64,000 bases of DNA from Apus apus (GCF_020740795.1 NC_067282.1:18089172-18153171); one strand, 5' to 3'; counted from the stretch's first letter, positions 13,991-43,783 are shown. The notes: generated from the letters alone by a model not told the origin. Numbers and translations are program-made.

Positions 13991-14231
13991 CTTTAGATTC
14001 AGGGCTAACTTGTTTAAACACCATGTAATGCAGTAGTATTCTAACAGTCCTTTTACAAGCCATTTCAGCAGGGCTGCTATGAACTGATTTTATTAAATAG
14101 ACTGTAAATTCCTTTGTTTTTTCTTTTAGTCACTAGCAGTTTGTGTGCCTTTCCTCGTGCTGCTCTTGCATGAGCAGCGCCCGGCACAGCAGTAATGCCT
14201 GCCCTGTGTTTGCTGTTGCAGGTGAAGCTGC

Positions 14232-14273
14232 TGATCAGCGCCTACCGGGTGCAGCTGCAGTGAGCTCACAGGG
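14232..14273 (+). CDS. MPHOSPH8: MPHOSPH8 terminal coding exon (VKLLISAYRVQLQ*), TGA stop at 14271-14273; 3'UTR continues downstream
   Basis: The acceptor is tgttgcag|. The short peptide matches the human MPP8 C-terminus (VKLLIGAYRVQLQ) and is followed immediately by an in-frame stop. Confidence 0.88.
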
Positions 14274-16025
14274 CAGGGCCGGGCGGGCTGGTGCTCCCTT
14301 GGATCTGCTGCCGATTCCTCTCTAGAGACTGACCAAGCAGTTTGGAGCTTTGGGCACCACACTCTTCAGAGCCTGTTCCCATCTTGCTGTCACTTGCTGG
14401 CAGCCACAGAGGAAGGTGTGTGTTGGAGAGCAGCTCAGGATGCTGCTCTGGTGGCACAAGGGTTGTCAGCTGGTTTTTACTTTGTACAGATGTAGCTGTA
14501 AGTATTTGTGCCAATACACATACTTCTGTTTTTCTTCAACTTGTGGAGTCCAGACTGCATATTTCAGCTTTTCCACAGTGTGGAACGGTGCGCATAAGAA
14601 CTATTTAAGGTAACTACGTGAAATGTCTTTTTTGATAGAAAGATCTTTTCCATTTGTAAACTACAATTTTTTACTTGCTTTAACTGTAATGTTTCTATGT
14701 AAAATGCAGAAGTGTCATATTGTTGGAGCCACGACTCTTCAGAGTCACTGCATTAGATGAGTTGCTGAGGGCTGTGTTCTGGTTTGAAACTGTTCCTGCT
14801 GCTCCTCCCGACGAGAAGGCAGCTTTGCTCAGTGATTCCCTCTGAACAGGGAGGGGTTCGGCCACAGGCATCTGGGCAGGCTCCGTGCTTAGGGCATTGC
14901 AGTTGGGTGCCTAGTTACATCTGTGTTTTGAAACTACTTCTGTAATAGAGAAGCAACTGAGAGTTCTACAGACATCTTAACTTTTGAGTTCTTGGCCAAG
15001 TGACATATGGGAAAACAAATACAAGGTGAAAATAACAAACCAGAAAACTAGTAACTACCTTAAATGCACAGGCAGTGCTTTTTGTAGACAGGAAGACAAA
15101 CATAAGAGGATTTCAGATATTCTTAACCTGACAGATGAGAACATGTACTGCCCTTTCATTCAGAAATTCAGTTCCTCAGTGCAAAGAGCTGCTATTTTTT
15201 TTTATTTACATGATCCACTTTATCAGGTGACAGGGGTTCTGTAACAGTTCTCTGCTATAAAAGACAAATGTAATACTTCTGCATGAAGTATAGAGTATTT
15301 TTCTTTGTAAATTACCCAACCTCTAGCAAAGTAAAAAAAAAGGTAAAAATCCAGATTGTGCCTTTGCAGTTCTGGGTGCCACATGTAGTTTACATGCCAC
15401 TTTGTGCCTATATTGTTAGCAAGACTATTGTAGATAAATTCTTAATTATTTGAGTGCTCACCATCAAAATGGTGCAGATGGATCCTATTAAGAACTGTGA
15501 CTTTTTATTATAAAGTTCAATTAACCTGTTTTTAATTTTTGGTTCTTGAAAGTTTAAAACTTTCATATTTAAGAGATGCCAAATGAGTAAGTAACAAAAC
15601 ACACTATTTCAATTTTGTGGAATGTTCCATTAAGCTATAGAAAACTAGAACAGCAACATGAGATAGAAATACTCGTTTCTGGTTTGATTTAGAGTAGTTG
15701 CCTGTCTTTTTGCAAACGGTATTGATGAGATGTTCCTAAGTCTGGGTTTTGAACAGACTTGGTACCTCCACCTCTCTGAAACATGTTGGATACTTTGTTT
15801 TGCCAAGTGTGAACACCTGAGGTGCACAAGAAGCAGTGGCTGAGAAGGGTGTTTGTCACTGCCAGCACTGGGGATTTGGTGTAGCTGTGCTGCTGCTCAG
15901 TCACTCTACGTAGCCAAGGAAGATGAGTAAGGAAAGGGGATGTTTGTGCTTTCTGGTGAAGTGACAGTTTCATGTATGTGGCTGCCCCTTCCTCAGTTAC
16001 TCCTGCAATGCACACCTGCCTAACC

Positions 16026-16045
16026 GTGTGGTGTGTGTGTGTGTG
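16026..16045. repeat. (GT)10 dinucleotide microsatellite
   Basis: The repeat gtgtgtgtgtgtgtgtgtgt is visible directly in the sequence. Confidence 0.9.
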
Positions 16046-19000
16046 AGGGGCTCTGTACAGCACAGCAGTGCTAAATGTTGGAGTTAAATGTTGGGGGACA
16101 ACATGGTTTTGAACAAATGTCCATATAATATAGATGATATTTAGAAACTGTTGTACAGTCTAACCTAAAAATGTCTACTAATGCTCTGAGAGTTGGCATA
16201 GTAAGTAGTTGGTCAAAGGCTGTTGACTTTGAGGATTTGTTTTGGTCAGGGTTTGGTTTTGTTTGTTGTTTTTTTTCCCTTGAGGCACTGGGGAGAGAGG
16301 GAGGAGTTTTACAGGACATGGGAATAAAATTTGGGTTCATGCTGCTTTTATTGAGGGATGGATTTTGTAGCCATCTTTCTCTTCTAGTTGGTGATATAAA
16401 TTAAAAATCCCTACTGAAGATGCATAAAAGGCATATGAAAAGATGTTTGAAGTTGTTTTTTGTCTGATTTTTATTGTATGGTGATTATCCAGTTGCTAAG
16501 AAAAAAGTTTAGGTAAATGAAAGATTAGGAGAAAGTAGCTACAATAAAAATCACTTCTTTAGGCTCTGTGGAGAAATACCTTGGACATACTTGCTCAGTT
16601 TCTTCTTGCCACTGTCAGCAAGGCCAAGCAGCTGCAGTTACTATCAACCTCACTGGCAATAAATTGTTCTGATGGTTTGGGTTCAACATCTTTCACTGCT
16701 GCACCATCAGTGTTTGTGTTCCCAGCCTCTCTCACAGGTACTGAAGGTTGGTGGGTGATGCAGCTGACTACTCACAGGTCTCCTGTGCTTTCTGCACCTG
16801 TTTTTCAAAAATGAGATGTTTTTTATGAGCCTGGCTAGAAGAAAAGCTGTTGCAGTGTGTGGAAGGGACAGTGCAGAGTGCAGCTGCCATCTTAGCCAGC
16901 AAGGGTTGCTCAGGCTGCCTGAGGGCTGTCCTGAAATGGTCAGCCTGTACCTGCTATAATTTTGTCATCGCTATTTGCCTTCCCAGACAGTGCTGGAAAA
17001 CAGTCAGTGTCAAATCTTTCTCCCTTGGTCAGTCAGTCAGAGCCACTGCAGTCCAGCAGGATGGGAGCTAGAGGAAAGCATCAGGCTGGGATTTCCTTTT
17101 GTTGAAGTTCTGTGATGTGGAGATGCAATGGAGTCTCACCTTCCAGGAATGCAAGGGAACTGTAATGGCCACCTCTTCTAGGCTGCAGGTGCAGCAGGGG
17201 CACTGCCTGCCCATCCCTGAGTCCTCACACTTGAAAGCTCCTCAGCTTTTCCCTGTCCCACATAAACGGTGAAAATATTTTTCAGGTTCTGAACAAAGGC
17301 AAAAGCTGTGGGGGGACACACCTAAAAGTAGACAAAAGACAGCATGAAATAAAAGTTTGAGCAGGACTGAGGCAGCAATAAAAATTATGGTTAGAAAAAG
17401 GTATCTTAAATAAATCTTGAGCATCTGAAGTACAGCAGCCAGGAGCAAGGGAGCAGGCAGAAGATGGTTCTTTTTTGATGTCAAGGCAACTTTTGCTTTA
17501 CGGCACAGTCTCTGTCATGCAGGATAGCTACAACTGAACTTTTTTTCTCCCAGGATTTCTGTAACACTTCTTAGATGGTTTGAATGGTGAGGAACTCCTC
17601 TGGTCAGTTGTAGGTGGCACAGAGCCATTTATAGTAGACGGGTCGGACCCATTCTAGCTCCTTTCAGCTGTCTCTGGCTTATACCATTTTCTCTAGGTAA
17701 TTAATACTTCTGTGCTCTTTTAAACTCTACTGCAACTTAAACAGAATTCCCACTATGGTTTTTTCTTTAAATATAAAATGCACCACTTTCTGATCTTTTG
17801 TCACAGATGAGTGCTTGAAAATATTTTTACCTCATTTCATTGAGCTCCTAAGTCTTTTTTTAAATCCAAACCCAATCACTTAACCAAGGAGCAGCCTTTT
17901 AATGTCTCAATTACTCTGATGCCTGTTGTAGCACATACAAACTTTAATCATTTTATCAACACCATTTCCCAGCACTAGTATTAGAGAAACAGAGAGAAAA
18001 TCTGCTTTCAGGTACAGTTTAGATACAAGAAGAGTCGAGGCCTTGGGCACATGTCAGAGTTGGGCAACATCAGCTTTACTGATGCTTGATTTTGCTCAAC
18101 ACTGGAAACCACCTTCTCTGGAGGAGGCTGAGGACCAGCACATCAGGAAAGCTGGAAGTCATCTCCTTGTACAGGAAAAGGCATATTGAAGTTGCAAGCA
18201 GACATTGTATTAGATGTGTCTGTTTCCATCTGAGGAGCTGGTGGGGGACACACCACCTCCATGCTGGGCCTCCTCCCCTCATTTCAGATGTCCCTGTTCC
18301 CTCAGGCCTTGCAGGGCAGACCTGTCTGCATGCAGAAAGAAGACAACTTAAGTTAGAGTAGTCAATTCATCCCTCTCCATAGACTTCATCACTATTTTGT
18401 AGGATAACAGTGTTATTCTTGTGCCCAAGAGCACAGAGAGCAATGCAGAAGAAAAGAGCACGTATTAAGAGCAGAAATAATACAAAGGGACTGACAACCA
18501 AGAACAAAGGAAACTGAGGATGTGACTAAAGTCACAACCACTGTTAAAGTGCTCTAATGAGTGACAACATGATTATATCCTCATCCCTGATGGTCCCTGG
18601 AATTCCAACTCAAAGAGCAGCATCTTCACAGTGCAGCAGAAAGCCATCTTCAGCCACGAGGGGTTTTCAGGAAATAAATATGATTCAGGTTGAGGATTAA
18701 GAGGAGACACCTCAGTGGTAACTTCCTTGAAAACGTACTTTTGTAATCAAAGAACAGCAGAACTATGTAATCACAGCCCAGTGCATCTCCTGGTGTAACA
18801 AAACCCTGTGCAAGTTTATTTTGGCACTGACGAAGAGAACATGATGCCACAGCAGGGCCAGCTTTTGTCTCTACAGATAACTGCTCAGCAATGAGTTAAG
18901 GAAGATCAAACTGAGCAGGTGTCATTTTTTTTATGTGACTGATATGGCTCACTCCCCAGAATAGCCTGCAACTTTTTCCCAGTTTGCTGTTGCACACTCT

Positions 19001-19699
19001 GCCCCAAATACAATGCAATTCACATACATTTTTTATCTACCCTCCATTTTTAATGCCATTTAAATAGGCCATTAGGCTGTGTCATCCAGGTTCACACTGC
19101 AGTCTGAAGCGTGCACACACAAATGAATAGTGGGGAAAGAGAAAGAAGGGATTTTATCACTCCACTGTGAATAGGAGTCATTATTTAGCCAAAGAAACAC
19201 TTGTATGTCCAAGGAGCCTTGGCCATCCACTCTTCCCTTCACAGGAAGGAAACCCTGAAGACAGAAAAAATTCTGAGGCGCCTGGGAAACCTGCCAAACA
19301 CTGAGGTTCCTGAGTGGCTCTTGTGCACAGGGGTAGCTGATACATCAGGACAAGCAAGGCAGCTGAATTCTCAACAACTATGTGGTCAAGACGTGGACAG
19401 AAAAATTTCTTTTAAAGTCAAACGTAAAATAATTAAATGTTTTTTTGGTTACTACTATTTTTCTGATAAAGTTTTACCTGTATTGTCCTTTTTAGATTTG
19501 ATGAGTAGCTCATAGCTTCCCTGTTTCCATAGCCTGGTGTATCTTACACATTATTGTGTGATTATTTTTATGTTACTATTTTTTGTGATTTTACAACTAG
19601 AAAATAACAGGGAACTCCTTAGTAAAGGGCAGAACCACAAAACAAGGTGCATATCAGACATCCGACTTCCTCAGCTCTGCCTCAGCATCAAACATGTAA

Positions 19700-21114
19700 C
19701 AAGGTCCAGGATCGGGAACACTTTCTCTGGAGACAAGTTATATGTGCTGGTCCTGATGTGAGGCAGCCAGGAGTGCTGAGAGAGATGCTCACTAGCATCA
19801 GGAGCCTGCTCTTGCTGAAAGGGCACAGCAACTGGGAGAGGTGTGCCAGGACTAGAGGAAACAGAACAACCAGGTGATCAGGTCCACTCAGCACGTGAAG
19901 GTCCTGCTTGATGAACCTGATCTCCTTCTATGACAAGACGACCCACCCAGTGGATGGCTGTGGATATTGTCTACCTGGACTTCCCTAAAGCCTTGACACT
20001 GTCTCCCACAGCATTCTGATGAAAAAACTGGCTGCTCATGGCTCGGATGGACATGCTCTCTGTTGGATAAAACACTGGCTGGACAGCTGGGCCCAGAGAG
20101 TGGTGGTGAACGCAGCTAAACCAGCTGCTGGCCGGTCACTGGCTGGGTCCCTCAGGGCTCAGTGTTGGGACCACTTGTGTTTAACATTTTAATCAATGAC
20201 CTCGATAAGGGTAGAGAGTGCACCCTCAGTAAGTTTGCAGATGACACCAAGTTGGGAGGCAGTGTTGATCTGCTTGAGGTTAGGGAGGCTCTACAGAGGG
20301 ACTTAGACAGACTAGATTGATGGGCTGAGGCAAAATGTATGAAGTTCAACAAGGCCAAGTGTTGGGTCCTGCACTTGGCCACAACCCCATGCAACACTAC
20401 AGGCTGAGGAAGAGAGGCTGGAAAGCTGCCCAGCAGAGAGGGACTATAGGGTTCTGATCAATTTGCAGCTAAATATGAGCCAGCAGTGTGCACAGGTGGC
20501 CAAGGCAGCCAATAGCATCCTGGCTTGTATTAGAAATAGTGTGGCTAGCAGGACCAGGCAATGATCACCCCTCTGTACTTGGCCTTGGTGAGGCCACACC
20601 TCAAATACTTTGTCCAGTTTTGGGCACCTCAGTACAAGAAAGACATCAAGGTGCTGAAGTGTGTCCAAAGAAGGGCAACAAAGCTGCTGAAGGGCCTTGG
20701 GAACAAGTCTTATGAGGAGTGGCTGAAGGAACTGGGGCTGTTTAGTTTGAAGAAAAGGAGGCTGAAGGGAGACCTCATCATCCCCCCTGTACAACCACCT
20801 GAAAGGATGCTGTGAAGAGGTAGGTGCTGGTCTCTTCTCACAAGTAACTAGTGATAAAACAAAAGGAAATGGCTTAAAGCTGCACCAGGGGAGGTGTTAG
20901 ACTAGACATTAGAAAGAACTTCTTCACTGAAAGAGCTGTCAGACATTGGAACGTGATGCCCAGGGAGGTGGTTGAGTCACCTTCCCTGGATGTGTTTAAA
21001 AGTCATCTAGATGTGATGCTTGGGGAATATGGCTTAGAGCTGGACTTAGCAGAGTAGGGTTAATGGTTGGACTCAGTGATCTTAAAGGTCTTTTCCAACC
21101 TAAGTGATTCTGTG
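19700..21114 (+). mobile_element. CR1 (chicken repeat 1) LINE, 5'-truncated copy spanning the ORF2 reverse-transcriptase region to the 3' end. The 5' boundary (about 19650-19860) is uncertain. The 3' terminus is ...ggtcttttccaacctaagtgattctgtga.
   Basis: Decayed frames read ...NQVIRSTQHVKVLLDEPDLL.., ..AVDIVYLDFPKALTLSPT..ILMKKLAAHGSDGHAL.., ..[31 protein letters not shown].., and ..[67 protein letters not shown].. (ORF 20561-20815). Then ..[20 protein letters not shown].. is followed by the typical CR1 3' terminus. All of these are hallmark CR1 ORF2 and 3'UTR motifs. Confidence 0.85.
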
Positions 21115-21116
21115 AA

Positions 21117-21185
21117 AGCAGACATCACTCCAGTCTTCAACCAGGGCAGGAAGGAGGACCCAGGGAACTACAGGCTCTGGGAAGG
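21117..21185 (+). mobile_element. Short second CR1 ORF2 fragment (..ADITPVFNQGRKEDPGNYRLW..) abutting the 3' end of the preceding CR1
   Basis: The peptide carries the LINE RT motif that reads ..NVTPIFKKGKKEDPGNYRPVSL.. in the CR1 consensus. It begins immediately after the (ATTCTGTG) tail of the upstream copy. Similarity is lost after about 70 bp. Confidence 0.5.
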
Positions 21186-24109
21186 TAGGTAAAATCCTAC
21201 CCATGTTTTAGAGAATACATGGATACAGCCTTTCAGAGCAAAGCCTAGCAGGTAACCCCAAGGTCTGTTCAGAATCAGAAGCTCCAGAGTCAATTGTACA
21301 AGCCAGCTCTGAGTGCAATGTGTCAGTAACACCCAGCAGCTCAGACACAGAATTAACGTGGCACTCTGGTCTTGGATACAAGACACATTCTGGCTAGTCA
21401 GACGTGGAGCTGTTTGCAGGAGGTTGTGCACATCAAGCTGCTTAGAAACATGTTAACATACGACAGGAATTATACAAGGCATTATATTATCTGAAAGCAA
21501 GTATTAGTTGAAGCACAGAAGCAGAACTACTCCACATCTAACCTCACATGTAAACAAAAAGAGGGCCCCCAATTTCAATAACTACATAATAAAGCCAAAT
21601 ATCCTAATACTCACCTTCATCCCAACACTTGATTTAGGATTTTCTTCTGTATGCGTAATATAGCAGAAGGACTCTACACAAGCCAGTCTTCAGCTGCATT
21701 TTAGCATTTTAATAGTAACCTAAAAAATAAAAGAGACAGTGAATAAATGTGACACTTCAAACAAGCTAGAAAATACAGTAGCTTCTCTTTCAAATACCCG
21801 TAAGTATAATATAAACCATAAATAAACCATAATAAAACTTCACATTACCAGAAAAAAATATCCATTTATTCTCTACCTATTCTTACCACTTTGTTGTTAC
21901 TACACAGATTTCTCTAAAGATTTTAATTTTACTACCTTAGCAGTTAAAAGCAACTGTTCCAAGAACATTAAGAAGCTTCTGGATTATCATACTTCTGCTT
22001 GGATTAAATGCAGTTCTGCTCCAAAGTGCCCCAAGTCATTTCTCTTTGGAGGGTTTTTAAAACACACACATACCAAACACAACACTCATCTTCTGCACCT
22101 GCCAACACATGTGGCCAAAGTGACATTTCATCCTTCCCTTATGACTGCCTCTAGAATAATTAGGATCCCTGCACAAACACAGAATATTAATGAAACTTGA
22201 GAACTGTTCTCACTGTAGCTGTACTGAGGGTATGGAAGCAGAAATAGTTTTCTCCTTGTTCTGCAGCCTGCTGTGGTACAGACATCTAACAGATACTGAA
22301 AAGGAGCAGAGCTATATATGAAATTAATACAACTGAACTAGAGTACAATGTCCTACTTTATAATAACAACTCAGAACTGAACTGCACACAAGTTTCATTA
22401 AAATACCTTTTAATACTAAAAGCATTAGAAATTGTTGCAGAAGTTTAAGACACCTGTAATTTAAAAGCTTCTGCAATAGATCTGCTTGCATTTGCAGTAA
22501 GTGTATTTGAAAGAAGAGCAAGTCAGAGTATAATTTTATTCCTGTTACATTTATTCATAATTAATTTTAATTATGTTCAAAAATGCCTAAATAATAACAA
22601 AAAGGGTTAATAAGGGTACCCTGAACTCTGTGTGTCTTCTCCTAGATTCCACACTTAAAATAATGATCCAACAGCTCCCTGCCCCAGCCATTTAGGCTTC
22701 CAAACAGCTCTTACCCAGATGTACATTCCCCCCTCCTTTGTCCCCAGTTAAAATCACCTCTTCTTCACAAACACCTCTGCTTTTAGATAACGAGTACTGC
22801 AAGTTTAAGGTAACTCATTACTCAGGCTGGGGAAGCAGACATAGAAACATGTTGCAGAGCCACAGAGCCCTCAAGAAATCTCTCCAGATGAAGACTGGAA
22901 ATCCCCCCAACTGTAGCAGTGCAAGAGGATGAGGAGCTCTGGGTGCACTCAGATCAAGACCTCCCAAAACTATTTACCAACATCTTGAGGTTCTGTTTGG
23001 TGAGCATAAAACTTAGCACACCCCGCAATGTTGCAGAAAGAATTCATCTGGAAGGCCACACACAAATTGCACCTTCCAGCTAGCTTCACTTCACGAGCAG
23101 CCCCAAAAAGCAACTTAGAAGTTACATGTGTCAATTACAACACACACCCACAAATATTTACATTAAAGGTAACACCTTATCAGATACAGCTCAACAACAG
23201 CTGAGTAGCAGCTCAGAATTAGTACAATTTCAAAGTTGGCACAATTCAACATCTGAGTCCTATTAAAAGTGCTGTTAATTCAGCCCTTCTTCCATTTGCT
23301 TACTTTTCATCTCTTCCCCCCATGGTGCAGTTGCTATATACCCAACTTCCAAAGTTCTGTTTTGATGGATATTTTCTTCCTAACGATGATGTGCCAGAGC
23401 ACAGCCAACTAACCCTTTGCAACCAGAAGTGCCATTTTGCAAGTGCTAGTATTAAAAGTGCTGAGCAGGTCAAATACAGTAACGGCCACAGAAATGACTG
23501 TCAGCCTTGGGGACCAGGCTGGAATTGTCACCTGGACAAATATCAGTGTCCTGGGACATGACCTCCTCATGGTGAAACTAATTCAGCTAAAGCTACAATT
23601 GCAAACTGCCCACCTTTCAGTCTGTATTTTAATATTACGAAAAAACATAATAACTAGGCTTTTCTTCATTTTCCCCCTATCTACAAAGAGCGAGGCTAAG
23701 ACCTCCAAAGGCCTGACACAGTCTCTCCAGTTTCCATAGCAGCCAGTGTATATTACCTTCTCCTTGGCCCCCTGGATGTACTGAAGAGAAAGCAGCTTCG
23801 TGGCAACCAGTAGATACTAGTGACAAAACTGTAGCCAAGTAAATCTGGTAGGTTTTGAAGACAACCCCTAAACCAGCCAGCAAGACCATATGGTAGCTAC
23901 AAATTAATAATTTACTGTAACTCCAATACTTACAAAGTGATTATATAGTGTGTGGGGTCTTTTTAAACAGTATGTCTCTGACTCTGCACTATTTTTTCAG
24001 GATTGTATCTCTAGAAGAAATGAAGATCATTCCAACCTCTCTACCCTCCTGCTTATGATTAACAGTAACTACTTTTTTAGACCTGAATGTATCCTAGCAG
24101 CTAATGCAG

Positions 24110-24129
24110 AAAAAAAAAAAAAAAAAAAA
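24110..24129. repeat. poly(A) homopolymer of about 20 nt
   Basis: An uninterrupted run of A is visible. Confidence 0.85.
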
Positions 24130-27100
24130 GGTATTTGTAGTGAGCAGGAACACAGCAAATATTAATTTTCAATGTAACAGACTCTGAATCCTCTTCATTG
24201 CTATGATAAAAGCTTTTCTTGAAGCTCAAAGTGGGTATGGTGCCAAGCAAAATGAACCTGAGACACCCTAAAAGGCTAATGGCAGGATAAATGTGCCTAT
24301 TCTGAACAGATCCATCATGCTCAGACTGACTGATACTGTGCATAGATTGTGCCATTATCAAGGAAAATGGAAAACCCGCTCCTAGTACAACCTATCTCAA
24401 GTAACACATATTCCAGCTTAAAAGTACTCTCACTGCAGCCTTTCCAATACACAGCTGCTGTGCAAGACAAGCTCCGAGCTGCCAGAGCTGTCAAACAGCT
24501 GTGACAACCCACAACACAAAGGACATTTGACATTTTCTTTGCACGCTGCTGCTATGCAGCTCCACTGGCTGGACTGACAGAAATGGCTGGGTTTTTTAAT
24601 TATATTTTTTTAACACGCTTTTTGGTGGCTACTGTAACAAAGAGCTTCCCCCCTCTATGTCCCTCCATTTCCCCCTTTATTTTACATCTACTTTAAAAAT
24701 TACCTAGCAACACAGAACAGCATTTGACTTCCACTGAAGTGGACCATAGGACATTTTGCACCAGCAGGCATAGGTATCATTTTGAGAGTAGCAGAGCCAC
24801 TATCCATCACACAGAAAGGAAGAACTCCAATGCCGAGCTGTTCTCAGGAAAACACACAATCCCTTGTGGCCATTTATTTGGGGTTTCCAAAGGGAACCCG
24901 AGATGATCCGCAGAGCTGTGTTCATGTTTGCATTTGTTGAGATTTACCTATCAAAAGGTAACAGATAACAACGTTGGCTACTGACGTACTAACAGAAGAT
25001 ACAGTGCTAGACATTTTTAATGGTCAAGCAATCCTTTCCTCCTCATTCTATGATTCTTCTCTGAGTTTTCAGTCAAGTCTGGACTAACCTGCTCACCTTA
25101 ATCATGAGTAGCCTCTGCTGAGGTCACAAGCACACATTTGCAGAAAAAAAAACATCAGAAAGTAAATCAGTTGTCACCTGGGCATCACTGAGTAGCTGCC
25201 AGGGATTACAGGAAAGAAACCACAACATTTCCCAATCTTACGTTCCTCAAATTCTCCCTGAGAGCTTGCAGACAGCTAAGAAGCAAGCATTTATGGGAAA
25301 AAGTGAACATTACCAAATGAAGGCTCAAAAGGAAAGTTCCTAGAAATGGAACAGCAAATAACCACTTGTACTGACCCAGCGAGGCATTACATTTCCTCGC
25401 CATTTTATATCTAGCTCACTATTTTCAGTTGATAAGCTACAGGTTATCTGAAGTCAGTATGTTACACAGAATGAGGAATGTGAATGTAGTAATATTCCTC
25501 TTCTGGAACCAGATTTAAAAACAAACAAAAGGTGGCAGTGACTAATGGCTAGGTAATAAACCAGTACGAGTGACAGCACTATGATCAAGGGACATTCATT
25601 TTTTTGTTTTGCCTGGATTGCAAAACTTCACTCATACAGAAGTTGAATTATTTCTTCAGTATTTGGGAAATGATGAGCATGTCTGAAAACATTTAAATAG
25701 AAAGGACAAAGATTTAATCTGTGTGGCTTAAACAAGATCTGAATTTGAAGACAGTGAAATTTACAAGTATTTTGTAAATTTAATACAAATTGTCCATTTG
25801 CAAGTCAGTTTGTTCCTACAAGTAAGATCATATACTTAACCTTTTTTTTTAAAAAAAAATATTCCCTACCATTTCAAAGAAGTTTAGATTTGATCAGCAG
25901 AAGGGAATTAAGTCTTTGATTTAACATTACTCAGGCTTCTATTGCACAGGGTAAATGTGTGTTATATTTTATATATATATTATACATATACACTGAATTT
26001 TTGAAAAATGTTGTGAACTGTGAGACTCTAGTCGTGCAAAACCATTAAAATAATCCTTTGTGAAACAGCAACTCAGTCCCCTATTTTTAACACAGTCTCC
26101 TCCCCCGCAGTGCTCACTAAACGTTGCCGTGTCAAGCTGAGGAATCTGTAACACCAGAAGAGCTGGCTCATCAGTGATTTTCATAATCATCCATTCTACA
26201 TATGTTGTCATTAATGCAGCAGAAATGCCTTCAGATATTCGTATTTCTACTTTTAATGACTGTGTTCATGCTGAGCAGCTTGGAAAACCATCCAAGTAAC
26301 AGTGTAACTTTCTCCATTCAAAACTCACAGGCCCCCTTACAGAGATGGGAAGTTCCTGAGTATTTTTTTATACTTTACCTTACCAGGAACAGCTAAGAAG
26401 TACAAAACTGTTGGAAGGAGCAAGGGAATAACCTTTGACCCTCATCATCTCTTTCGCCTAGAAATAATGATGTATAGATGTGACTTCACCAATTAATAAA
26501 GAAAACTTAAGAAACCTGGCAGATCAAAAGCATCTGAAGCCATTGCATCACTCAGCATTGGAAGTTACAGTTAACATTTAATGAGCTTGTTTTATGTTAG
26601 GTTCTAGAGATTCTGAGTGAGTTCAGCTATGACAGATACTTATGGCTTATTTATGTAGAGAAGTTTGCTGTAAACTAGATATAGCTGAAGTAGCCCAGCT
26701 AGTGAGAAGCAGCATCGGTATTGCTCTACTTCAGCAGAAGTCAGGATTTCATTGAACACACACTGTGCAAAATGGTTTATGGTTATGCAACCTGAGAGAA
26801 TCACTAAGAAAATTTTAGAGACATTTAAACAGGCAGTTGTATTAATATTTACTTAGATTTCAAATTACTTTAAGTTGTTTAAAAGTAGCAAAAAATAGTA
26901 TAGGCAAAGCCTGAGAAAGTTTTCTCAGAGTTTTAAGACTCTGCATTATAGAAAAATACTCATGTATCATTGAGACTTGATGACCTCACTAGTTTGAGGA
27001 TATTTTGGATCTTCCAAAAACTAGTGGGGAATCTACTTTCTAGGGAAACTTCCTAGATTGTGCATAATCCAACTTACTCTAATGTAAAAAAACCAACGAA

Positions 27101-27596
27101 AACCACAACATAATTCCCAAGGAATTGTGAAATTCACCCATCAACAGCACATTTACTTCTGAAGTGTTCACTTCTGCTTTACACAACTTCACACAACACT
27201 CCCCATTCCCTCAGATAGGTAGGGATTCCTTACCTGTCATTTTTGCAGCAGGTGCCAAGTTAGGCCAATGACCTAACCTCCTCCTCCAAAATATTGACAG
27301 CAGAATTGATTATCTTTGTGGGACTAAAATGTCTGAAGCCATAGAACTGTGCTGGGGGAAAGGGCAGGGCAAACTGTGGTCGCATGGTCCTTATAAAGAG
27401 CAACAACTCAAGATTCATTCAAAGAGCTTTCATCTTTGCTGTGCTTCAGTTAAAAATGTAAAATTTAGTATTAAGCAATACATCCATCTAAATTGAAATA
27501 AAACCTAGTAAGGAAGCATTCAAATACATGAGCACGTCATAGGATTTTAATCTTAATTCATAAAAAGTTCAGTAAAGTCAAAGCTTTATTTCAGTG

Positions 27597-27846
27597 ACAG
27601 AATCACAGAAGGGTTAATGTTGGAAGGGATCTCTGCATGCCATCTGGTCCAACCCCCCTGCTTAATCAGGGCCACCCAGAGCCCCATGTCCAGATGGCTT
27701 TTGAATATCTCCACAGGTGGAGACTCCACAACCTCCCTGGGCATTCTGTGCCACTGCTCAGTCACCCTCACTTAAAAATGTGTTTCCTGATTTTCAGAGG
27801 CAGCCTCCTGTGTTTCAGTTTGTGCCCATAGTCTCTGGTCTTGTCA
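27597..27846 (-). mobile_element. CR1 3'-end fragment (minus orientation), intergenic
   Basis: It has the same antisense CR1 tail signature: cacagaagggttaatgttggaagggatctc..catctggtccaacccccctgc..atgtccagatggcttttgaatatctccacaggtggagactccacaacctccctgggcattctgtgccactgctcagtcaccctcac..gtttcagtttgtgcccatagtctct. Confidence 0.75.
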
Positions 27847-30800: not shown

Positions 30801-33800
30801 AAATTTTTAGAAGAAACAAAGATGAGGTCAAATCACATCTTCATGCTTTTCCACATTACTATCTCCCCCATCTGTAAATCAATGAAGAGCACTTACCTAC
30901 TTTTACTTTTCCATATTAGTATTTCCACACACCTATGAGTCAAGAAAGGGTACTTCTCTACTTTTTAAAGTTGTCACATATTATGTCACTTATTGTGTAC
31001 TGATTTACACAAAAGAGAAGCTTTAACTTTAAATTAATCCAGATCAAAAGTTGGTTTTTTTTCCCCACCCCTCAGGAAGAGCATAAATCCTTTTAAACAA
31101 CAGAACAGGTTAAGAATACATACATGATATTCATATAATAACAAAACACATATGGAGAGATATGTAATGACTTGCTAAATCACATAAAGAACTGTGCTTA
31201 CTGTGCATCTGACATTTGATTATTTCCTTCAACTCATTTCCATCAAGTTCAGTATTACAATCCCCAAATAAAGTTTTATACAGCTCACATCTTCCACAGC
31301 ACCACAAAAAGTTAAAGCTTTTTTGTAATACAGGAAAACCTGGAATACAGAATAGGAAACCAAGTCCTACATGAAATGGGTAAGGATACCCAGATCAGGC
31401 CAATGACAATCTTGAAAGATTAATTATTTAACCAAGTCCCATAGTGTATGTCACAATACATTCTGACATCACTGCTAAAGCTTTGCAGAAGACTGAAGAA
31501 TTTTCACCATAACACTAACAGAAAGTTAGGGATGAGTCACCATGTCCTCAGTGTCAGCACAGTCAAAGATTTAGAGTTCAAATACTTCTTGAATATGTAA
31601 GACCTCTAGTAAATAAAGTTTTCCATCGCCTTTAAAGACATACCATTCAGCTTCCTTGACACTGGGCAGATTTTGAGGGTACCAGATTCTCAAACTATTT
31701 TTTAATAAAAAATAAAATATTAAGAAGATTCTAAATTACCAGTTTTCTCACCGGAAATCTCAAGAATCAAGCCACATACCATAAGCAATCCCTTACCCTC
31801 TCCCAAAAATCTAGATGAACACTTTCAAACCTGTAAGTACTTCTGTGACTACTACAGCAATAAAGCAGAAATGCAAATTCAGTATCATAGTTCTGGGCAT
31901 TTCCCCAAAATATCATACACCTGGGAAATTCAGGTTTATGGTTCACTGCAAGAAGAAGATATATGAAATAATTCATTTCAAAGGTAGTATGAATAATGCT
32001 CAAGATCTGATTTTATCCCACTAGGCTTAAAAACACAACATATTATCAGTCTTTGGTAACTACTATCACTTGAATTATTCTATTTCTGATATTCAGAAAT
32101 ACCCATGCTACTATCTCCAATAAATTACATGTGCCTAACTGAACCACTACTAAGATGGAAGTAATTAATTAATACCTGTAACTGGGTAAAATAAGATAAA
32201 TTTTATTACTGATTCAGTCTTTATAACAAACAGTTTTGTGTAATGGTCCCAATTTCAAGAGTAAAACAATGCACGTCCAGTAACATACTGCAACTCAAAA
32301 CAAGAGCATGATTTCTTCACAGATTTGTACTTTCCCCCTTGCTCCAGTGAATTGACTTATGCTCACACAATTCTGAAGTTTCACTTTAAAAATTATGAAA
32401 CTCAAACTACTTTTTATGTTTAATACAACTTGGGGAGTTACAGTACTATTCAGAGCAAACATCAAGTCATTTGTAATTAACTGGCTTGTACACATGCTTA
32501 TGATTAAGACCAGATTATCTGTGGAAACTAAACTCAGCAATTTTTTTTTTTTATCTTTAAGTCAAGTGGGCTGTAAGCAGGAAAAAATCTAGATGTAGTC
32601 ATGCATGATAGTATACCAAGTGATTTTATTCTCCTGAGCCAGCTGTCATTTTAGAAGCAGTAGAGGCATCCAGGACTTCCATTTACTTTCCTAATAAGCA
32701 CATTTTCATGACTTGCTACTTCTTCCCCATATGCAATAGAAAAAGTATATTTTGCACAAAACATAGAGTGAACACAAAAGAGAAAGCAAGCTTTGAAATG
32801 AAAAAAAAACCCTAAATATTACATAATTAACAAGTGCTCTAGTACCCCCCTTCTACAGACATTTGCATTCAGCAGTGTGAAAAATGTATGAAACTATACA
32901 TGACTATGATGTGAGAATGATGCTGAACATGCATTAAGTGATGGTACAAAAACTACACAAATGATAACATGGCAACAATAAACTGGCACATATACCAAAA
33001 TGGTTCTAGAAGAACAGCCATCCCCACTGCCATTTTAAATGAGGAATTTGATAGATGACAATTATTTCATACATTTTCTTTCAAAACTCTCAGCAGTGAG
33101 TTTTTTAAATCTAGTAATTGCACTCTTCACACACTAAGGCAGAAACTTTATTTATATTATTTGACACAGCTCTGGTTCTGAAAATGTCAGATGTCCTCAG
33201 CCATTTGCTACTGATGCAATGCTGGAAGTTATAGAAGCACAATGTTCATAACAGAACAAAAATTAACTACCATTTCATTATTAAAGTTTTCTTTCTGTGC
33301 CTTCTGGAAAAAGCTTTTTGAAGTTGAGTGAAACATGCTCTGTTCCTTGAAATTGTACCATAATATATGGAAAAATGTAGTGCTATCATATCAAAGAATT
33401 AAGAACATCAGCACTTTAAAAGACAGAATTTCCCATCTTTGTAACTGCAGTTTACGTATTTTCTTCTAAGAAAGAAATACACATAAATAGTCTTGCTTTC
33501 TAAAGCAACTGTGTATATAATCTTTTCCAAAGAAATCATTAGCACAATTTTCCATATTTTACTGACTTGCATGTAAACCTTCTTGGCAACTGCAGAAAGT
33601 GATCAAAAGCTCAGGTATCATTTGGCTCAGCATTTTAGTTTACATTTTTTGTCTTCATTATTTCAAATACTTGCCCCTCTTGGGCCAACTATCACTACAA
33701 ATTTAACTAAAGCCTCAACATATTCTTACCTATTTGTTCTGTCTTAGAAGCACTGAAAAGCCATCCAAACTCACTGAACGAGAACACATATGAACTACAT

Positions 33801-36800
33801 TCTCTACATGGTATGTAGATCAGCACAAACTAACCTATGCCAACAGAGTTAAGAAGAGTCTTGCTCTGCTGCCCACTCCTTGCTGTTCTTTCCTTCCACA
33901 CTGAACTAAGCAGAGTCTGTAATTTTCACTGGGTTTCTTTTACCCTGCTCACTGCATGGGCAGAGATGCAAGTTGGCACAAGGTAGGCAGGAAGCAGGAC
34001 AAAGCAGCAAGGAAGTCAAAGGGCTATTCCTATCTGCAGCAATCCATGTACTCCTTTTTTGTTCTAAATATGCACACAAAGATCTCTAATTTCCCATTAG
34101 CATAAAAATATTTAAAACATTCATAAGCAGCTTGAAAGACCATTCCCAGCTGGCACTTCAAAGATTGCATTCTACAGTACAGTAATACCTGGTTTATGCA
34201 GAGATTTTTCCTGTAACTTTACACTAGATTTAAATATTGAAAGCTTAGTTACGTTGCTGCAGAGTAAATCCTTTAACAGCAAATGGTGAACACTAATAGA
34301 GCTCTTAAAATGAAAAACACATTAAAATGCCTGAAACACCTACAGAAAACAGCTGCAAAAAGAATTCAAATAAATCCTTGTGATGATTGTTACATCTTTT
34401 TAGATTTATTACATTTCCTTTTCAATCTTGCTTAAGTATATGTAGTAAAGAACTAAAACCTGTTTTGCTTGGAGAGGGTTAGGCATTAGGCTAGTTTTGA
34501 TTTTTTGGGAGGGGTGTTTTGGTGTTTCTTTCAAACACTCACTTAGAAATAAGATTACTTTCACATATATAAAAAATATGACAGTGAAATTAAGGCAGAA
34601 AACCTAATGAAAAGTTCTTAATCCTATCCCATAATTACTATTAAATATTCACTACTTTACTTCCTTTACACCATCTTCTGTTTGGTGCTTCTCTGGCTAA
34701 GACACACGTGTAAGTTCGGGTTCTGACTGGTTTGATGAGAGGCTAACAATGTGAAAATCAGTCGTTTCATACTTACAACAACATGAGACAGTTGCTGTAT
34801 TTAGCCACAAAAGTCAAGTCCTACAGAACAACTTCATAACAACACAGAAGAAATACATCCAACTGCAGTGACCCCATCCCATGTCCCATGAATATTAAAA
34901 TGTTTCAGACCATCAATTCATTCCAGTTTGTCGGATATTCCTTGGCCATCTGCACAGCACTAAACTCCGAAGTTTCAAAAAAATCCAAGGCATTAATGTA
35001 ACTGGTATTTCCATCTTTTCCATTAAAAATTATTTAGTTTGTGGTTTTCATATATAACAAATTTTATTTTTGTGAATCTGCAGATATAACATTAAACCAC
35101 ATTTCTCCCATTTTCATTATGTTACTTTATTCCCCTCTCCCCATCTTCTTTCAATTTACATACAGGACTCTTCACACTTATTCCTGCTCAAGGTTCTATT
35201 TTACTGAGAAATCAAAAGGCAAGAACAGTATCTTTATTCTCACTGTGCTTCTTCCCAGTCAAGCACTTCACATCCCACATACAGTTAAGCATGTAAATTC
35301 AAATTATACAGCTATGCTTTACTCTACAGAAATTAAGATATAAAAGCACACTACTAAAGCTAGGAACAACAGCCACTCTAGACAAACCATTTACCAAAAC
35401 AAATGGAAAAAACGTATCAACACTTGGATGCAGTAACACAGTTAAGTTCCTTTTGAATCTCATACCTCTTATTATGAGCATTTTGTCCTCTATTTGAGTA
35501 ACTACATAAAAACCAGTTAAGCTTTTACCCACATCTACCCAGGTACTTTTTTCTTTTAATATTTTTTGAAACAATCATCATATGAAAGCAATTTTTTAAA
35601 TTGGCTTTACCTGTAAAGTATGTTATGCTTATCTCTGAACTTTAAAGTTTTCGGAATAGTTCCTTCAATTAGGAAAAATTGGTTGTTGTTCTAAACTGCT
35701 TTCCTGAGGAAACACATCTCTTACTGCTTTCAGAAGTCAGGCTGAAGTCATTAATACGCCTACCGTCACATTTAAATTATATTACTTTTCATAGTTGCTC
35801 AAGGAAGTTCAAGATGGAAAAGACCTATTAAATGTCTGAAAACTAACTTAAACACACTGAGGGCTTGTTTCCATGCGTTTAAAAACATTAGAAGTATTGT
35901 TTTCATGAAAATTCAATGTTCAGTTTATCTATTCTACAACTTACATTTCAGACATAAAACTTCATTTTTATAAACGTCGGTATTCCATGGATTACTGTGA
36001 AAACAAACCTGAAATGCCTACAGCTATGATTTTTAAAGTGTTTTATTGTGAAAACCCCAAAACTATTAACAAGACAGATTTCTTCATAACAGCAGACCAC
36101 CAGATTTGTGAGACCACCTACTGAGACTAAGTAGATTTTTACAGTATATCCCAAAAGACAACAAAAAGCCAAACCAATGGAAAAAGATTTTACCTGCAAG
36201 CTTTCAATCAACCCTTCTATTGACAAGTTGTCACATTTCATTGAATGGATTCTTAAGAAAACAAAGGCTTCTGGGATAATGCAGAGGACCATTTGCCACT
36301 AAACTATCACTGAATAGCCAATAATCTAAAGGAGTAATGTCCAGCCTCTGTATTTTCCATAGGCCACACTCCCTCTCTCTTCACTATTCAAGAATCAGGG
36401 AAGTTTGGATAGATATTCCCTCATGCTAGGAGTGAGCTAACAGCCCATGAAAAGCATCAAATCCCAACATGGTTCTGCATTTTAGGATAGCACAGTGCCC
36501 AAATTAATAAATTCAGGACTCTTGAGAAGACAAATTCCATTTTAAATGTGTGCTCTCCCAAGTTCCCCAGTCTTGGTCCCAAGCACAAGCTAACAAGAGA
36601 TGCTGGATGCACTCTGTAAAACTACCTATGATATACCACAACTTCAAGTCTCAGGAATGGGACTGAGAATCCATTTATATTGCAGTCTAATATTAACTGA
36701 TTCCATTCGTTGCTACCCAGCCCTCCCTACCATTTTAGTAGTTCAATTACAGTTTACTTTAACTTGTCTTCACTAAGAACTACAATCCAACTTATTATAC

Positions 36801-39800
36801 AAAAATTATATACTAAGTATACAAAGAAATCAGCTTCCACAACGTATTTATGTTAAATGAGCTTCATGCCATGAAAGCACACCACTCATTTGCTGAACAT
36901 CTCAGCTCAAAGCATATCCTCCCCCTTCAAAAACCCCACTGGGTTTTGTTTTTCACTTGAGAATCTTCCTTTAGATCAAGTCATTTTGTCATTTCTGAGC
37001 CAAGTTATTTTGAGGCAGGCTGTGACTGTTTAACAATCCGTACTTCACAAAAGTCAATGCATTTGTATTTAGTATATGTCAAAAGAATTTGTAATTACAG
37101 ATTAATTTATTTTTCAAGTTAAAAAATCCAAAATCAAAGATGGAGAAGGGGAAAAATAGCTTGGTATAACATTTTAAAATATGACAGCACACTTTAGATC
37201 AGAATGCTCCTCAAAGGATGCATACATATACAGATAAAATTCTGTTGGATTACAGTTAAAATTAATGTAACATTTAGTTCATACTGTCTTCTTACCATCT
37301 ATGTAAACCTTTTGTTCTAATGAAAGTCTCCAGTTCATTGTACATTTATGTCCAATTGGATAAAACAGATGTGGACAATGATAAAGCAACTTAAGGTGAG
37401 GAATTTTCTTACTTAGAAATCCATAGCAATTTTTAAGTATTTTCTAAGGAAAGAAACACAGTTAACTGAATCTGAATCGGCACCAAGCTTGCCAAGCTTT
37501 ATCTAATTTATCTAGTGCTTTATCTAATGAGCATGCTGGACAGAACTACAACGAAATTAACTCACAACCAACCAAAATGAATTTAATTTTTTCAAGTGCC
37601 AAATACCTCCCCTTCAAATGGCTGAGGTGACAAATGCAAATGCAGTTAGACAAATTGGCTTCTAGTTGTGTGATTTTTTTTTTTTACTTAAATGGAATAG
37701 AAAAGCTTTGTTATCTTTAAGTATTAAAATTGTATCTCACATCAAAACTAAGCAGTTTAGACTGACATTTTGGGAATAATTAAAAACTCAGCACAACCTA
37801 AAAATGAGTGCACTGTAGTTGTTAACTTTATATCCTTTCCAAGCTTATGTTTTATCATAGCTCATAGCAGAGAGAGTCAGGACTTCACTTTGCTTTCTAG
37901 TCTAACAGAACAAAGGCCATTAAAAACTTAAGTACATGTGTACACAGAAAAAAATATAAACTGATCGGCCAGATAAGGAACAAGAAAGATCAATTACTTC
38001 CAGCACATGGGCAGTACTTTTAATCAATAATCTTGCCTCTATATGCAATTTTTAGGAACTAAACTGGGATTATACCTTTCCTAACAAAATTATGTGTTGA
38101 TTGTTTAGCTAGAGTCAGTTACTACCTTATTTGACAAAATGAAAATCACTGCCTTTAGCACTGAGATGAACACAGTCATGGCCAGGCAGCCCTACAACTA
38201 AAGTTATGAAGAGCTGAATTTGACAGCCTGTCATCAGCTACAAAAATTCTTCATTAAGTCTTTGTGGCCAAAGTGTGGCCAAATTCAACATTTCAGTATT
38301 TAAGGCTTGGTTCATAAATATTTAAGAAGAGATTAGATGACTTTCTGCAATAAGGACAGCAGACAAACCCACTGCTACCATGCAGCAGAGCCCTCTGAGT
38401 GAAGAGTTTTACAGAAAGAGTAGCTCAAAACTGTGGAATAACAATCACTAATAACAATTAAAATCCACAGTAATTTTCAAATACATACATAATGCTGCTT
38501 GGTAGCAAAAACACAGTGTAACAAAAGCATTTAAAATAGCATGAGGCTGGCAAAAGAATAAATGACTTATTGCAGACTTGGTATGTTTAACGTACTTCTG
38601 TGAAACATACTCAGGTACTACAACAGGGTGATGGTCTATATACCTAAAGAAATACACAGAAGTTAGCCAGCAGGCCTGAATGACACAGTCTTTTCATTTG
38701 AAAAACGGAACAGACCTCTTGAATCCAATTCAAACTGTATTAGAACATGTTCCCCTTATGGCCTTACAGTTTAGAATTACCAGCTCACACCAGTACTTTA
38801 TCAATCACCATAAAAAAATGCCATGTACAAGGGCAGAAAAGATGAGATAGAAGTCATCTAATCACCTTACTAGACACTGATGTAAACTGCATTTTAAACT
38901 GAATGCAGCAGACCAAAGCAGAGAATTTCAGTAGTTGCTATATGCACAAACTAGTTCACACCTAGTGAAAACCGAGCGATTTTCCCAAATGTTGAGTTTT
39001 AGGAATAACGTGCTAACCCAAACAAGTTGCAAGGTGTTTTGTTTTTTTTAAGAATGAAGCTTGAAGCATGGATCAAGCAGGAGAAAGAGAACTACAGACT
39101 TTAAACCTAACTTGGTATTGCGTTACTAACCATTAAGTGTGGCATGTATCTCGAGCAAAAAATGGCAACATTAAAGACAAGTCTAAAGGAAAATGCTCAA
39201 CAGTTAAAGGAGGTACACATGTGATAACTCCTGAACTGTAAGAAATAATATCTTAAAGCCATATATACTGGCAATTTAAATAACGGGGTACTTCTAGAAT
39301 GCCAACAATGCCTCAATTCTCCTGTTACCATTTGCTCACAATTCAATTCACCAAGACCATCACTGCTATATTAGGTAACACATGCATGGGCTCTCTGCTT
39401 CTTGCACCCTGTGCTTTGAGCCACATACACAGCATTCTGATTTAATTAGGGGACCATGTTATCACAAACCTGGTTTTAGTCCATTTAGTATCACTATTCA
39501 TGCAGAGAAATTTTAGTAATTTCTATTTCTGAAAAAGAGAGTGAAATGATAAAAAAAGAAACACTAATATTTTACAACTATTTTGCACAGTAAAAAAGCA
39601 ACAGTAACCAAAAATATCATCTACTTTCTTGCCATACAGGAATAGAACCAATAGGTCTTTTCCATCATCTTCCATGACCAAAAAAATCTGAATCATATTA
39701 CAGAATCTTAAGCTTACAAAATATTAAGCTTTTTAGTCGCATTATCACCAGTTTTATTTCAAGACTCCATCAGCAAATCTAGCCTGAGTTTTGCTGAAAA

Positions 39801-40523
39801 TAGATATTTTTCATATTCACCACTGTAAAACAATTATCAAGAATACTCATGTGCAATCCCTTCTAAATACATATTAGTCTACTAGAAGTGAACAATAAGT
39901 TTAACTGGAAAACGTGTCTGCCTGCTTATTAAACAGTTAATAATTGATAACAAACTTGGTTCTATTCAAACCAACCACTGGGGGAAATGCATGCTTATAA
40001 TGATGCATTACACAGTAGAAGGCTTTAAACCAGCTTGCCCAATGTCTCCTTTCTTGCAGCGGCAAGATAGTTTAGTGATCAGCAGAATGCATGGATGTCA
40101 CAACAACTTTCCTCCTGCAGAAGCATGGTTTAGGTAAATTCATTCATATTGTTATGAATAAAGCGCAATACAGATTTCCTTTTCCGAAGTTCCCCACCCC
40201 TCTATGGCCCAAGTTAAATTTTCCAATAATTTGAGTAACAGATAATACTCTGTTGATAAGCCTATCATGACTAAGTTTGCAAAGGGAGACTAAGGTATCA
40301 GGACAATTTATGCTCTTCAAAAGAACAAACAAACAAAAGCAGTTTTGATATAAATAATTCACAGCATGTACTGCAACATGCAGATTAGCTAAACAGATTC
40401 ATCACAGACACACAGAAAAAACTACGTAAGAATGAAAATGATGCCCTTTTAATTAAGTGCAACATTATTCTCACCCGTTATCAGTAATAACATTCCCAAA
40501 ATTCTTTCTGGTGATTTTTGTAT

Positions 40524-40529
40524 TTTATT
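40524..40529 (-). promoter_or_regulatory. PSPC1: Candidate PSPC1 polyadenylation signal (AATAAA on the minus strand; plus tttatt), about 265 nt downstream of the stop codon
   Basis: This is the first canonical hexamer 3' of the stop on the coding strand. A T/G-rich stretch follows on the minus strand. Many other hexamers lie further along, so usage is uncertain. Confidence 0.3.
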
Positions 40530-40792
40530 TTAATCAGATAACTGCATGTTTTACAGCATAGTCACACATTGTATTTTGCTAGTCACAAACACATTGCCTT
40601 ACATAATGATCTGCATAATTTCTCCTCTATACTACAAAGCCTACAACTGAATACAAAAAAAGTTTTACAAAAGAAACTGTTTTAAAGACTACAATAACAA
40701 TAAAACCATTTCCAGATAACAGCTAAAATTATAAAGGCATATCACTGTATATTTTTACTGGAATTTCTAAACAGTAAGGAATGAAATAAGTT

Positions 40793-40978
40793 TTAGTATC
40801 TGCGACGCTTGTTAGGTCCTTCAAAGTTGCCCCCTGGGTTTCCTCTACCAAAGCCACCAGGTCCACCACTCACGGCACCTACACCACTCATTGGCGGCTG
40901 AGGAGTTTCAGAGCCCGTTCTACTAACCAGAGGTGAACCCATCTGTGATGGACCTCCTTGAGGGAATCTCTCATTATG
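40793..40978 (-). CDS. PSPC1: PSPC1 terminal coding exon: [61 protein letters not shown]; stop (TAA) = revcomp of 40793-40795; minus-strand acceptor ...tattag| at 40979-40980
   Basis: The minus strand translates to 62 codons in phase 0. This closely resembles the human PSPC1 C-terminus ([61 protein letters not shown]). Confidence 0.92.
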
Positions 40979-43613: not shown

Positions 43614-43783
43614 CACTGTTCCATTATCTGGCATCATTGGTGTTCCCATATTTGCTGCTCCTTCTGGTCCCATGGAAGGACCAGGACCCATTGCAGGGCC
43701 AGGTAAAGTTCCTCTGTTGTTCATATTCATACCCATCATTGGAGGAGGGCCTTGGTTACCAGCAGGTGCTGGGCTAAACGCAT
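43614..43783 (-). CDS. PSPC1: PSPC1 penultimate coding exon: (D)[56 protein letters not shown]; minus-strand acceptor catag| (plus 43784-43785), donor |gtaacg (plus 43608-43613); phase 1 in, 0 out
   Basis: This is ORF 43581-43796 (-) trimmed to its splice sites. It matches the human PSPC1 Gly/Pro/Met-rich region ([57 protein letters not shown]). Confidence 0.88.

Follow-up and report, generated by a model that had tools for sequence, protein, structure and literature searches.

Alternative downstream exons of PSPC1 and the strand skew between the PSPC1 and MPHOSPH8 stop codons in Apus apus

Transcription leaves a compositional asymmetry on vertebrate DNA. On the non-template strand A→G changes exceed T→C changes and A→T changes exceed T→A changes, over whole transcripts and past their annotated 3′ ends (PMC2927911). 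A second kind of variation at gene ends concerns the DBHS proteins, which carry a nuclear-localization signal (NLS) at the C-terminus (PMC4872119), and among them PSPC1 (paraspeckle component 1), which in the mouse exists as a long form of 523 amino acids (aa) and as a short form of 391 aa without the C-terminal NLS (PMC4395133). The two subjects meet in a stretch of Apus apus DNA (GCF_020740795.1, NC_067282.1:18089172-18153171) of 64,000 nucleotides (nt), hereafter the window, in which positions are counted from the first letter and skew values are those of the plus strand. MPHOSPH8 (M-phase phosphoprotein 8) on the plus strand and PSPC1 on the minus strand converge here, and their stop codons are separated by 26,529 nt (26.5 kb). 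An earlier note made from the sequence alone had put this distance at about 26 kb, which holds although its starting point, 14274, lies 11 nt late. The note had also suggested that the minus strand is transcribed between 21.5 and 40.8 kb, and had offered very long or alternative PSPC1 3′ untranslated regions (3′ UTRs), read-through, or an unannotated long non-coding RNA (lncRNA) in explanation. We find support for the continuation of PSPC1 transcription into this interval; alternative PSPC1 3′ ends come closest among the options named. Some 23 kb of the 26.5 kb between the stops (~17.9-40.8 kb) very probably belongs to the PSPC1 transcription unit, its skew being the footprint of PSPC1 transcription. 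The footprint would be an ordinary one, because the interval carries alternative downstream exons of the gene.

Strand skew between the two stop codons

Between 21.5 and 40.8 kb the AT skew is +0.059 and the GC skew -0.129. These values are as strong as those in the PSPC1 introns at 40.8-64 kb (+0.087 and -0.086) and opposite in sign to those of the MPHOSPH8 body at 1-14.3 kb (-0.048 and +0.104). When 21.6-40.8 kb is divided into one-kb bins, A exceeds T in 18 of 19 (t = 6.8) and C exceeds G in as many (t = -7.7); for a minus-strand gene this is an excess of G+T on the sense strand, present in the AT and the GC component alike. The minus-sense skew that the earlier note had seen by eye was thus borne out on computation, and its statement that nothing changes at the PSPC1 stop was confirmed as well, the skew being continuous across it. 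A homopolymer or repeat artefact as the source of the skew was ruled out, since the values are unchanged after masking of homopolymers and intra-window repeats. Summed over its two components, the skew of ~0.19 is larger than what we take to be the genome-average values of human introns. The opposite skew claimed for the MPHOSPH8 body stands on average, and solidly so for G over C (13 of 14 bins); T over A is clear as an average but noisy from bin to bin (11 of 14, t = -1.3).

The sign of the skew flips between the predicted ends of the two convergent genes. The cumulative T-A curve has its maximum at 17861 and the cumulative G-C curve at 21513. The switch, which had been placed near a CR1 element at about 19.7-21.5 kb, is found there for G-C (21.5 kb) and not for T-A (17.9 kb). 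The two switches lie 3.6 kb apart because a plus-oriented interspersed repeat (Table 1) locally cancels the GC skew. This repeat is presumably CR1-like, judging from a C-terminal motif of ORF2; a Pfam search of the open reading frames (ORFs) in 19600-21115 gave no match, and the segment 20992-21103 recurs elsewhere within the window. Taken by zone, the minus-sense skew is weak at 17.9-19.6 kb (+0.04 to +0.07), cancelled at 19.6-21.1 kb, and strong from 21.1 kb upward. On the other side of the switch, 14.26-16.35 kb has the strongest plus-sense skew of the window (AT -0.093, GC +0.138, with a GC skew of +0.35 in the bin 16001-16500).

Downstream PSPC1 exons and their transcripts

Protein databases were searched with a near-full-length PSPC1 query, and the tails of alternative isoforms were then mapped onto the window by tblastn. 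The databases hold the canonical PSPC1 of ~525 aa together with many isoforms that are common over the N-terminal 70% or 87% and diverge thereafter. RefSeq, Ensembl/UniProt, and GenBank submitters list such isoforms for dozens of species, and their recurrent alternative C-terminal tails follow either the penultimate exon (ending ...PDNGTV) or an exon ending ...FMDN. The alternative exons are accordingly not new as such: the annotations of dozens of bird genomes already include them, and C-terminal isoforms of PSPC1 have been published for mammals. The tails gave 11 matches in the window with E<1e-3, all on the minus strand and all within 18.2-60.2 kb, and the reversed-sequence control of the mapping gave no match below E=0.03.

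Between the two canonical stops lie six of these exons (B, E, D, C, A, and F; Table 1), with tblastn E values from 1.7e-28 to 3e-4 in the exon-homology test. In all six, the first phase-0 codon of the tail directly follows an AG acceptor, itself preceded by a tract of 70-83% pyrimidine. Exons A, B, and E also have consensus donors at their 3′ ends, resembling MAG/GTRAGT (a slash marks an exon boundary throughout). The closest described counterparts are the annotated avian and reptilian PSPC1 isoforms (RefSeq X2-X9, Ensembl/UniProt, GenBank). The window exons start at the same codon as their tails, examples being VTIKILKCR, VSLNKCKHEHSSADH..., TCSSFPKY, VKEMMRVKGYS..., RSLTASEILAPQR, and TGLPCK...; the difference is that these models come from other species and that tail lengths vary through indels and stop changes. 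For exon C, 42 of 43 residues are identical to tails in Malurus, Passerculus, Pyrgilauda, Accipiter, and Columba. Isoforms ending VTIK(I/M)LKC(R/S) take their alternative C-terminus from exon A; this tail is found in passerines, raptors, parrots, and a goose, and a turtle and a lizard have related ones. The tail of exon D has counterparts in Passer, Serinus, Columba, and Caloenas. The phase-0 translation of the candidate exon F, TGLPCKA followed by a stop, resembles the tail TGLPCKTRGN... of Aquila chrysaetos isoform X2, and ATTAAA signals lie 3′ of the exon at 17948 and 17903, with the T-A switch at 17861. In view of these six exons, the statement that the interval shows neither an ORF nor a conserved protein-coding exon is not supported.

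Close to exon F, a weak match (E=0.001) to a Podargus strigoides tail lies at 18659-18588 on the minus strand without a convincing acceptor or donor, and may be a distal exon or chance. Further tail matches lie inside introns upstream of the canonical stop, at 60166-60107, 61954-61919, 49499-49470, and 42504-42412, again on the minus strand. An example of an intronic tail, LLELSLTWSLYTYLSRLRRD, is 90% identical to a tail of Cinclus, Aphelocoma/Cyanocitta, Serinus, Aquila, and Accipiter. The 3′ half of PSPC1 contains many alternative exons.

Two contigs from other birds bear on these exons. A 1273-nt contig from a sequencing run (L017) carries an uninterrupted PSPC1 coding sequence (CDS) of 397 aa ending ...FMDN/VTIKIITCR and a stop, and must therefore be cDNA. 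Over its last 30 nt, which are joined on at the predicted acceptor, it matches exon A of a 5.1-kb genomic contig (L016) at 100% identity; exon A is thus spliced to PSPC1 coding exons in the RNA of another bird. L016, which is colinear with 25839-21254 of the window, has the same skew in PSPC1 orientation (T>A 0.092, G>C 0.123). It keeps the acceptor, stop, and donor of exon A, the acceptor and AATAAA of exon C, and the acceptor and stop of exon D; the donor-like GT of exon D in the window is GC in L016. Introns are ~70% identical between the two birds, and the surroundings of exon D 84-90%. Across ~25010-24725 on the minus strand, which takes in exon C and its upstream intron flank, identity reaches 93-98%, as against ~70% in the surrounding introns. 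Contigs L002-L011 are short and genomic, and have only the penultimate PSPC1 exon in common with the window.

The canonical PSPC1 3′ UTR is short, ~0.3 kb. The poly(A) signal ATTAAATAAA lies at 40534-40524, ~260 nt after the stop, and similarity between the window and a gecko stops at 40516, right at this signal. A contig from a related species (L001, Logan ERR13189120) is a spliced cDNA joining exons at 48.4, 43.8, and 41.0 kb and terminates in AATAAA and a poly(A) tail ~310 nt after its stop. (At 700-756 of L001 a 1-nt indel in the 57-nt exon divides the ORF into two called genes, probably an assembly error.) At the far end of the interval, the signals point to transcript ends at ~16.35 kb for MPHOSPH8 on the plus strand and at ~17.9 kb for the distal PSPC1 end on the minus strand, which would leave the two genes only ~1.5 kb apart.

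Table 1. Coordinates of features in the window (a slash marks an exon boundary; E values are from tblastn)
Feature	Position	Strand	Details
MPHOSPH8 last coding exon	14222-14260	+	VKLLISAYRVQLQ; TGA at 14261-14263
Probable MPHOSPH8 3′ UTR (~2.1 kb)	14264-16345	+	extends to first plus-strand AATAAA (16323), GU-rich downstream; predicted from sequence
Exon F, candidate distal terminal PSPC1 exon	18325-~17880 (3′ end predicted)	-	acceptor ...ctgcatgcag/ACAGGT; TGLPCKA, stop; E=8e-6
Interspersed repeat	19600-21115	+	between exons A and F, antisense to PSPC1; ORF 20561-20815; GC 0.49, G>C
Exon A, 105 nt	21719-21615	-	acceptor ...tctcttttattttttag/GTTACT; VTIKMLKCS, stop 21692-21690; donor GAAG/gtgagt
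PSPC1-sense skew interval	21614-40792	-	intronic for isoforms using exons A-F; downstream of canonical poly(A) site
Exon C, alternative terminal exon	24947-~24660	-	acceptor ...ccttttgatag/GTAAAT; VNLNKCKHEHSSADHLGFPLETPNKWPQGIVCFPENSSALEFFLSV, stop; AATAAA 24681-24676; E=1.7e-28
Exon D	25682-25637 (3′ boundary uncertain)	-	acceptor ...gttttcag/ACATGC; TCSSFPKY, stop; E=3e-4
Exon E, 74 nt	26457-26384	-	acceptor ...tatttctag/GCGAAA; AKEMMRVKGYSL...; donor CTG/gtaagg; Columba livia tails, E=1.4e-5
Exon B, 118 nt	27351-27234	-	acceptor ...ccctttcccccag/CACAGT; HSSMASDILVPQR, stop; donor CAG/gtaagg; Acridotheres and Caloenas tails, E=9e-7
Canonical PSPC1 last exon	40510-40978	-	CDS 40978-40796, stop 40795-40793
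PSPC1 penultimate coding exon	43614-43784	-	DAFSP...PDNGTV; splice source for tails A, C, D in annotated isoforms
PSPC1 57-nt coding exon	48363-48419	-	REQEMRMGDMGPRGAINMG

Origin of the skew

The findings suggest the following course of events. Some polymerases would run past the canonical PSPC1 poly(A) site, and would do so regularly in the germline. The resulting transcript would be spliced from the penultimate exon, or from the exon ending ...FMDN, to the downstream exons B, E, D, C, A, and F. The isoforms so produced would be truncated at the C-terminus, without the last 61 residues and hence without the KRRRY nuclear-localization motif that these include, and some of them may be unproductive mRNAs prone to nonsense-mediated decay (NMD). 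Over the long term, germline transcription of the minus strand would leave a G+T asymmetry on the sense strand, and a plus strand rich in A and C, out to the last alternative exon, where the PSPC1 asymmetry would meet the opposite one left by MPHOSPH8 and its ~2-kb 3′ UTR. The exact poly(A) sites are predicted ones, use of the exons in the window's own species is suggested by the conservation of their signals and by other birds, and it is presumably transcription, not replication, that causes the skew.

Several observations weigh against this account. The skew at 17.9-19.6 kb is weak, and few transcripts may therefore reach exon F, or read-through from MPHOSPH8 may cancel the skew. For exon F and the match at 18.6 kb the similarity is modest, and the window's copy contains stops. 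Exon A, at 74% identity to L016, is no better conserved than its flanks at ~70%. As a rule, alternative isoforms are minor products of a gene, yet beyond the canonical poly(A) site the skew is as strong as upstream of it, which needs either substantial read-past in the germline or an added contribution such as replication.

How do other explanations fare? Plain read-through would have RNA polymerase II run ~19 kb past the canonical poly(A) site, the exon matches being opportunistic or mere annotation noise. Asymmetries do extend past annotated 3′ ends (PMC2927911), exon A does not stand out from its flanks, and many different tails across species are what noisy splicing would give. We nevertheless regard this explanation as unlikely, for a second bird keeps the acceptors, donors, stops, and poly(A) signals, exon C is set far apart from the intron background by its identity to L016, individual tails turn up again in different bird orders and that of exon A also in the turtle and the lizard, and a spliced RNA contig exists. 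A distance of 19 kb, moreover, far exceeds the usual termination zones. The lncRNA of the earlier note, taken as an independent non-coding gene on the minus strand that is driven from a promoter of its own beyond the PSPC1 stop, is highly improbable: every annotated isoform that was examined links the exons to coding exons of PSPC1, as does the L017 cDNA, the skew runs through the PSPC1 stop without a discontinuity, and GC content stays at 0.33-0.41 across 22-40 kb with no GC-rich island. As for a single canonical 3′ UTR of ~19 kb, which the unbroken skew from the stop to 21.6 kb might have recommended, it is scarcely credible and is already contradicted by the conserved poly(A) signal at which window-gecko similarity ends, by the polyadenylation of the orthologous cDNA L001 so soon after its stop, and by the splice sites that bound the downstream exons.

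The remaining explanation is replication, with a constant fork direction across 21-64 kb that happens to coincide with the genes. GC and TA skews are products of replication too (PMC2817419, PMC3459929), and the skew past the canonical poly(A) site matches in strength that of the gene body. It is nonetheless a very unlikely sole cause, given that the flip from plus to minus is abrupt, falls within ~4 kb, and lies exactly between two convergent gene ends, and that orthologous DNA of another bird and of a gecko likewise has gene-oriented skew. In skew N-domains it is origins that give sharp upward jumps, and termination is diffuse, which counts against replication here.

If the interval is PSPC1 territory, as we think very probable, the distance between stop codons is a poor proxy for intergenic distance wherever alternative exons follow the canonical stop. 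The skew correctly marked the PSPC1 unit, ~23 kb beyond the stop and to within ~1.5 kb of the MPHOSPH8 3′ end. In a small way, the locus shows that the extent of a transcription unit can be read from compositional skew, with nothing but the sequence to go by.

The locus and its counterparts

The two genes were identified from database proteins named "paraspeckle component 1" and "M-phase phosphoprotein 8" in many vertebrates, with bird orthologues 96-98% identical. A missed final PSPC1 coding exon closer to MPHOSPH8 was ruled out, since the canonical C-terminus ...KRRRY maps to 40796 on the minus strand. The last PSPC1 exon (40978-40796, minus strand) differs by one residue from Gallus XP_025006360: it reads GVGAVSGG, like non-galliform birds, where Gallus, Coturnix, and Pavo have GVGTVSGG. 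A tail in Malurus, Passerculus, and Amazona isoforms is the penultimate exon (43783-43739, minus strand) read in another frame because the 57-nt exon (48419-48363) is skipped, a frameshifting exon-skip isoform. One trivial tandem repeat was found in the window. No Rfam family reached its gathering threshold over the window; a sub-threshold SmY match at 38227-38329 on the minus strand (25.4 bits against a gathering score of 39, E=0.089) is regarded as chance, SmY spliceosomal RNA being, to our knowledge, restricted to nematodes.

The earlier note had set the 26 kb of the window against about 1 kb in human. We take it that the annotated human gene ends, not the stops, are ~1.3 kb apart; if so, the window resembles human, with transcript ends here at a similar predicted spacing, and unlike quantities had been compared. 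The figure for human thus probably mixes transcript-end with stop-to-stop spacing. Nor is a narrow spacing seen in two other vertebrates. In a tarsier, the 10 kb that follow the MPHOSPH8 stop do not contain the last coding exon of PSPC1; in a gecko, the 10 kb that follow the PSPC1 stop contain no MPHOSPH8 exon and have PSPC1-sense skew throughout. The contrast with human is therefore not supported. In a sensitive blastn comparison with the flanks of the gecko (L012) and the tarsier (L013), the window matched only over the first ~280 nt of the canonical 3′ UTR and the last MPHOSPH8 exon. Primate alternative tails were tried on the tarsier flank and set aside, as they are Alu-derived and match everywhere.

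The only item that might merit follow-up is the conservation of exon C. The exon differs from its counterpart in L016 by a 2-nt indel, and the TGA of the window is TGG there, so that frame and stop are not kept; the constraint therefore acts on the nucleotide sequence and not on the protein. A test of RNA structure in exon C gave no signal (z = +0.33), neither the exon C peptide nor the ten largest ORFs matched Pfam, and the exon was not found in the gecko and tarsier flanks. Tentatively, and against the odds as we see them, this constrained non-coding element might be a regulated switch of the alternative-terminal, intronic-polyadenylation, or "poison last exon" kind. Were that so, DBHS proteins could balance full-length, NLS-bearing PSPC1 against truncated or unproductive transcripts, and the passage of so much polymerase beyond the canonical poly(A) site would be explained. 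The literature search returned nothing linking PSPC1 to a poison exon or to alternative polyadenylation.

The nearest models for such a switch are the poison exons of RNA-binding-protein genes, where alternative splicing is coupled to NMD. Exons A, B, and E resemble them in carrying an in-frame stop followed by a consensus donor. The stop of exon A lies 75 nt upstream of the donor (21615/21614), which exceeds the 50-55-nt rule for NMD at the sequence level only. Exon C resembles the ultraconserved poison exons (PMC11357089) in its high conservation at the nucleotide level, intron flank included, and differs from poison exons in that its appearance, with an AATAAA of its own, is that of a terminal exon and not of a cassette.

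Mammalian PSPC1 offers a parallel for the truncated isoforms. There too an alternative 3′ exon swaps the C-terminal region and takes away the NLS in it (PMC4395133), giving PSP1-alpha (523 aa) and PSP1-beta (393 aa in human, 391 aa in mouse). A short-isoform protein in our set (P0203) ends ...YMEN/GDKRKRG. This mammalian beta tail, GDKRKRG, was not found in the window or in the tarsier flank searched. The parallel is one of principle and not of established homology between the avian and the mammalian exons. The long PSPC1 of the mouse is testis-enriched (PMC4395133), which is only suggestive with regard to germline transcription. In Chironomus the DBHS protein Hrp65 has alternatively spliced C-termini, some of which are without an NLS and are imported through dimerization (PMC4872119); as an insect gene it provides a functional analogy only for truncated PSPC1 isoforms.

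Finally, the skew itself conforms to the transcription-associated asymmetry of vertebrates, in which an excess of G+T on the sense strand spans the transcription unit, passes the annotated 3′ end, and takes the opposite sign in a convergent neighbor (PMC2927911). That analysis dealt with mammals and fishes, whereas the present locus is that of a bird.

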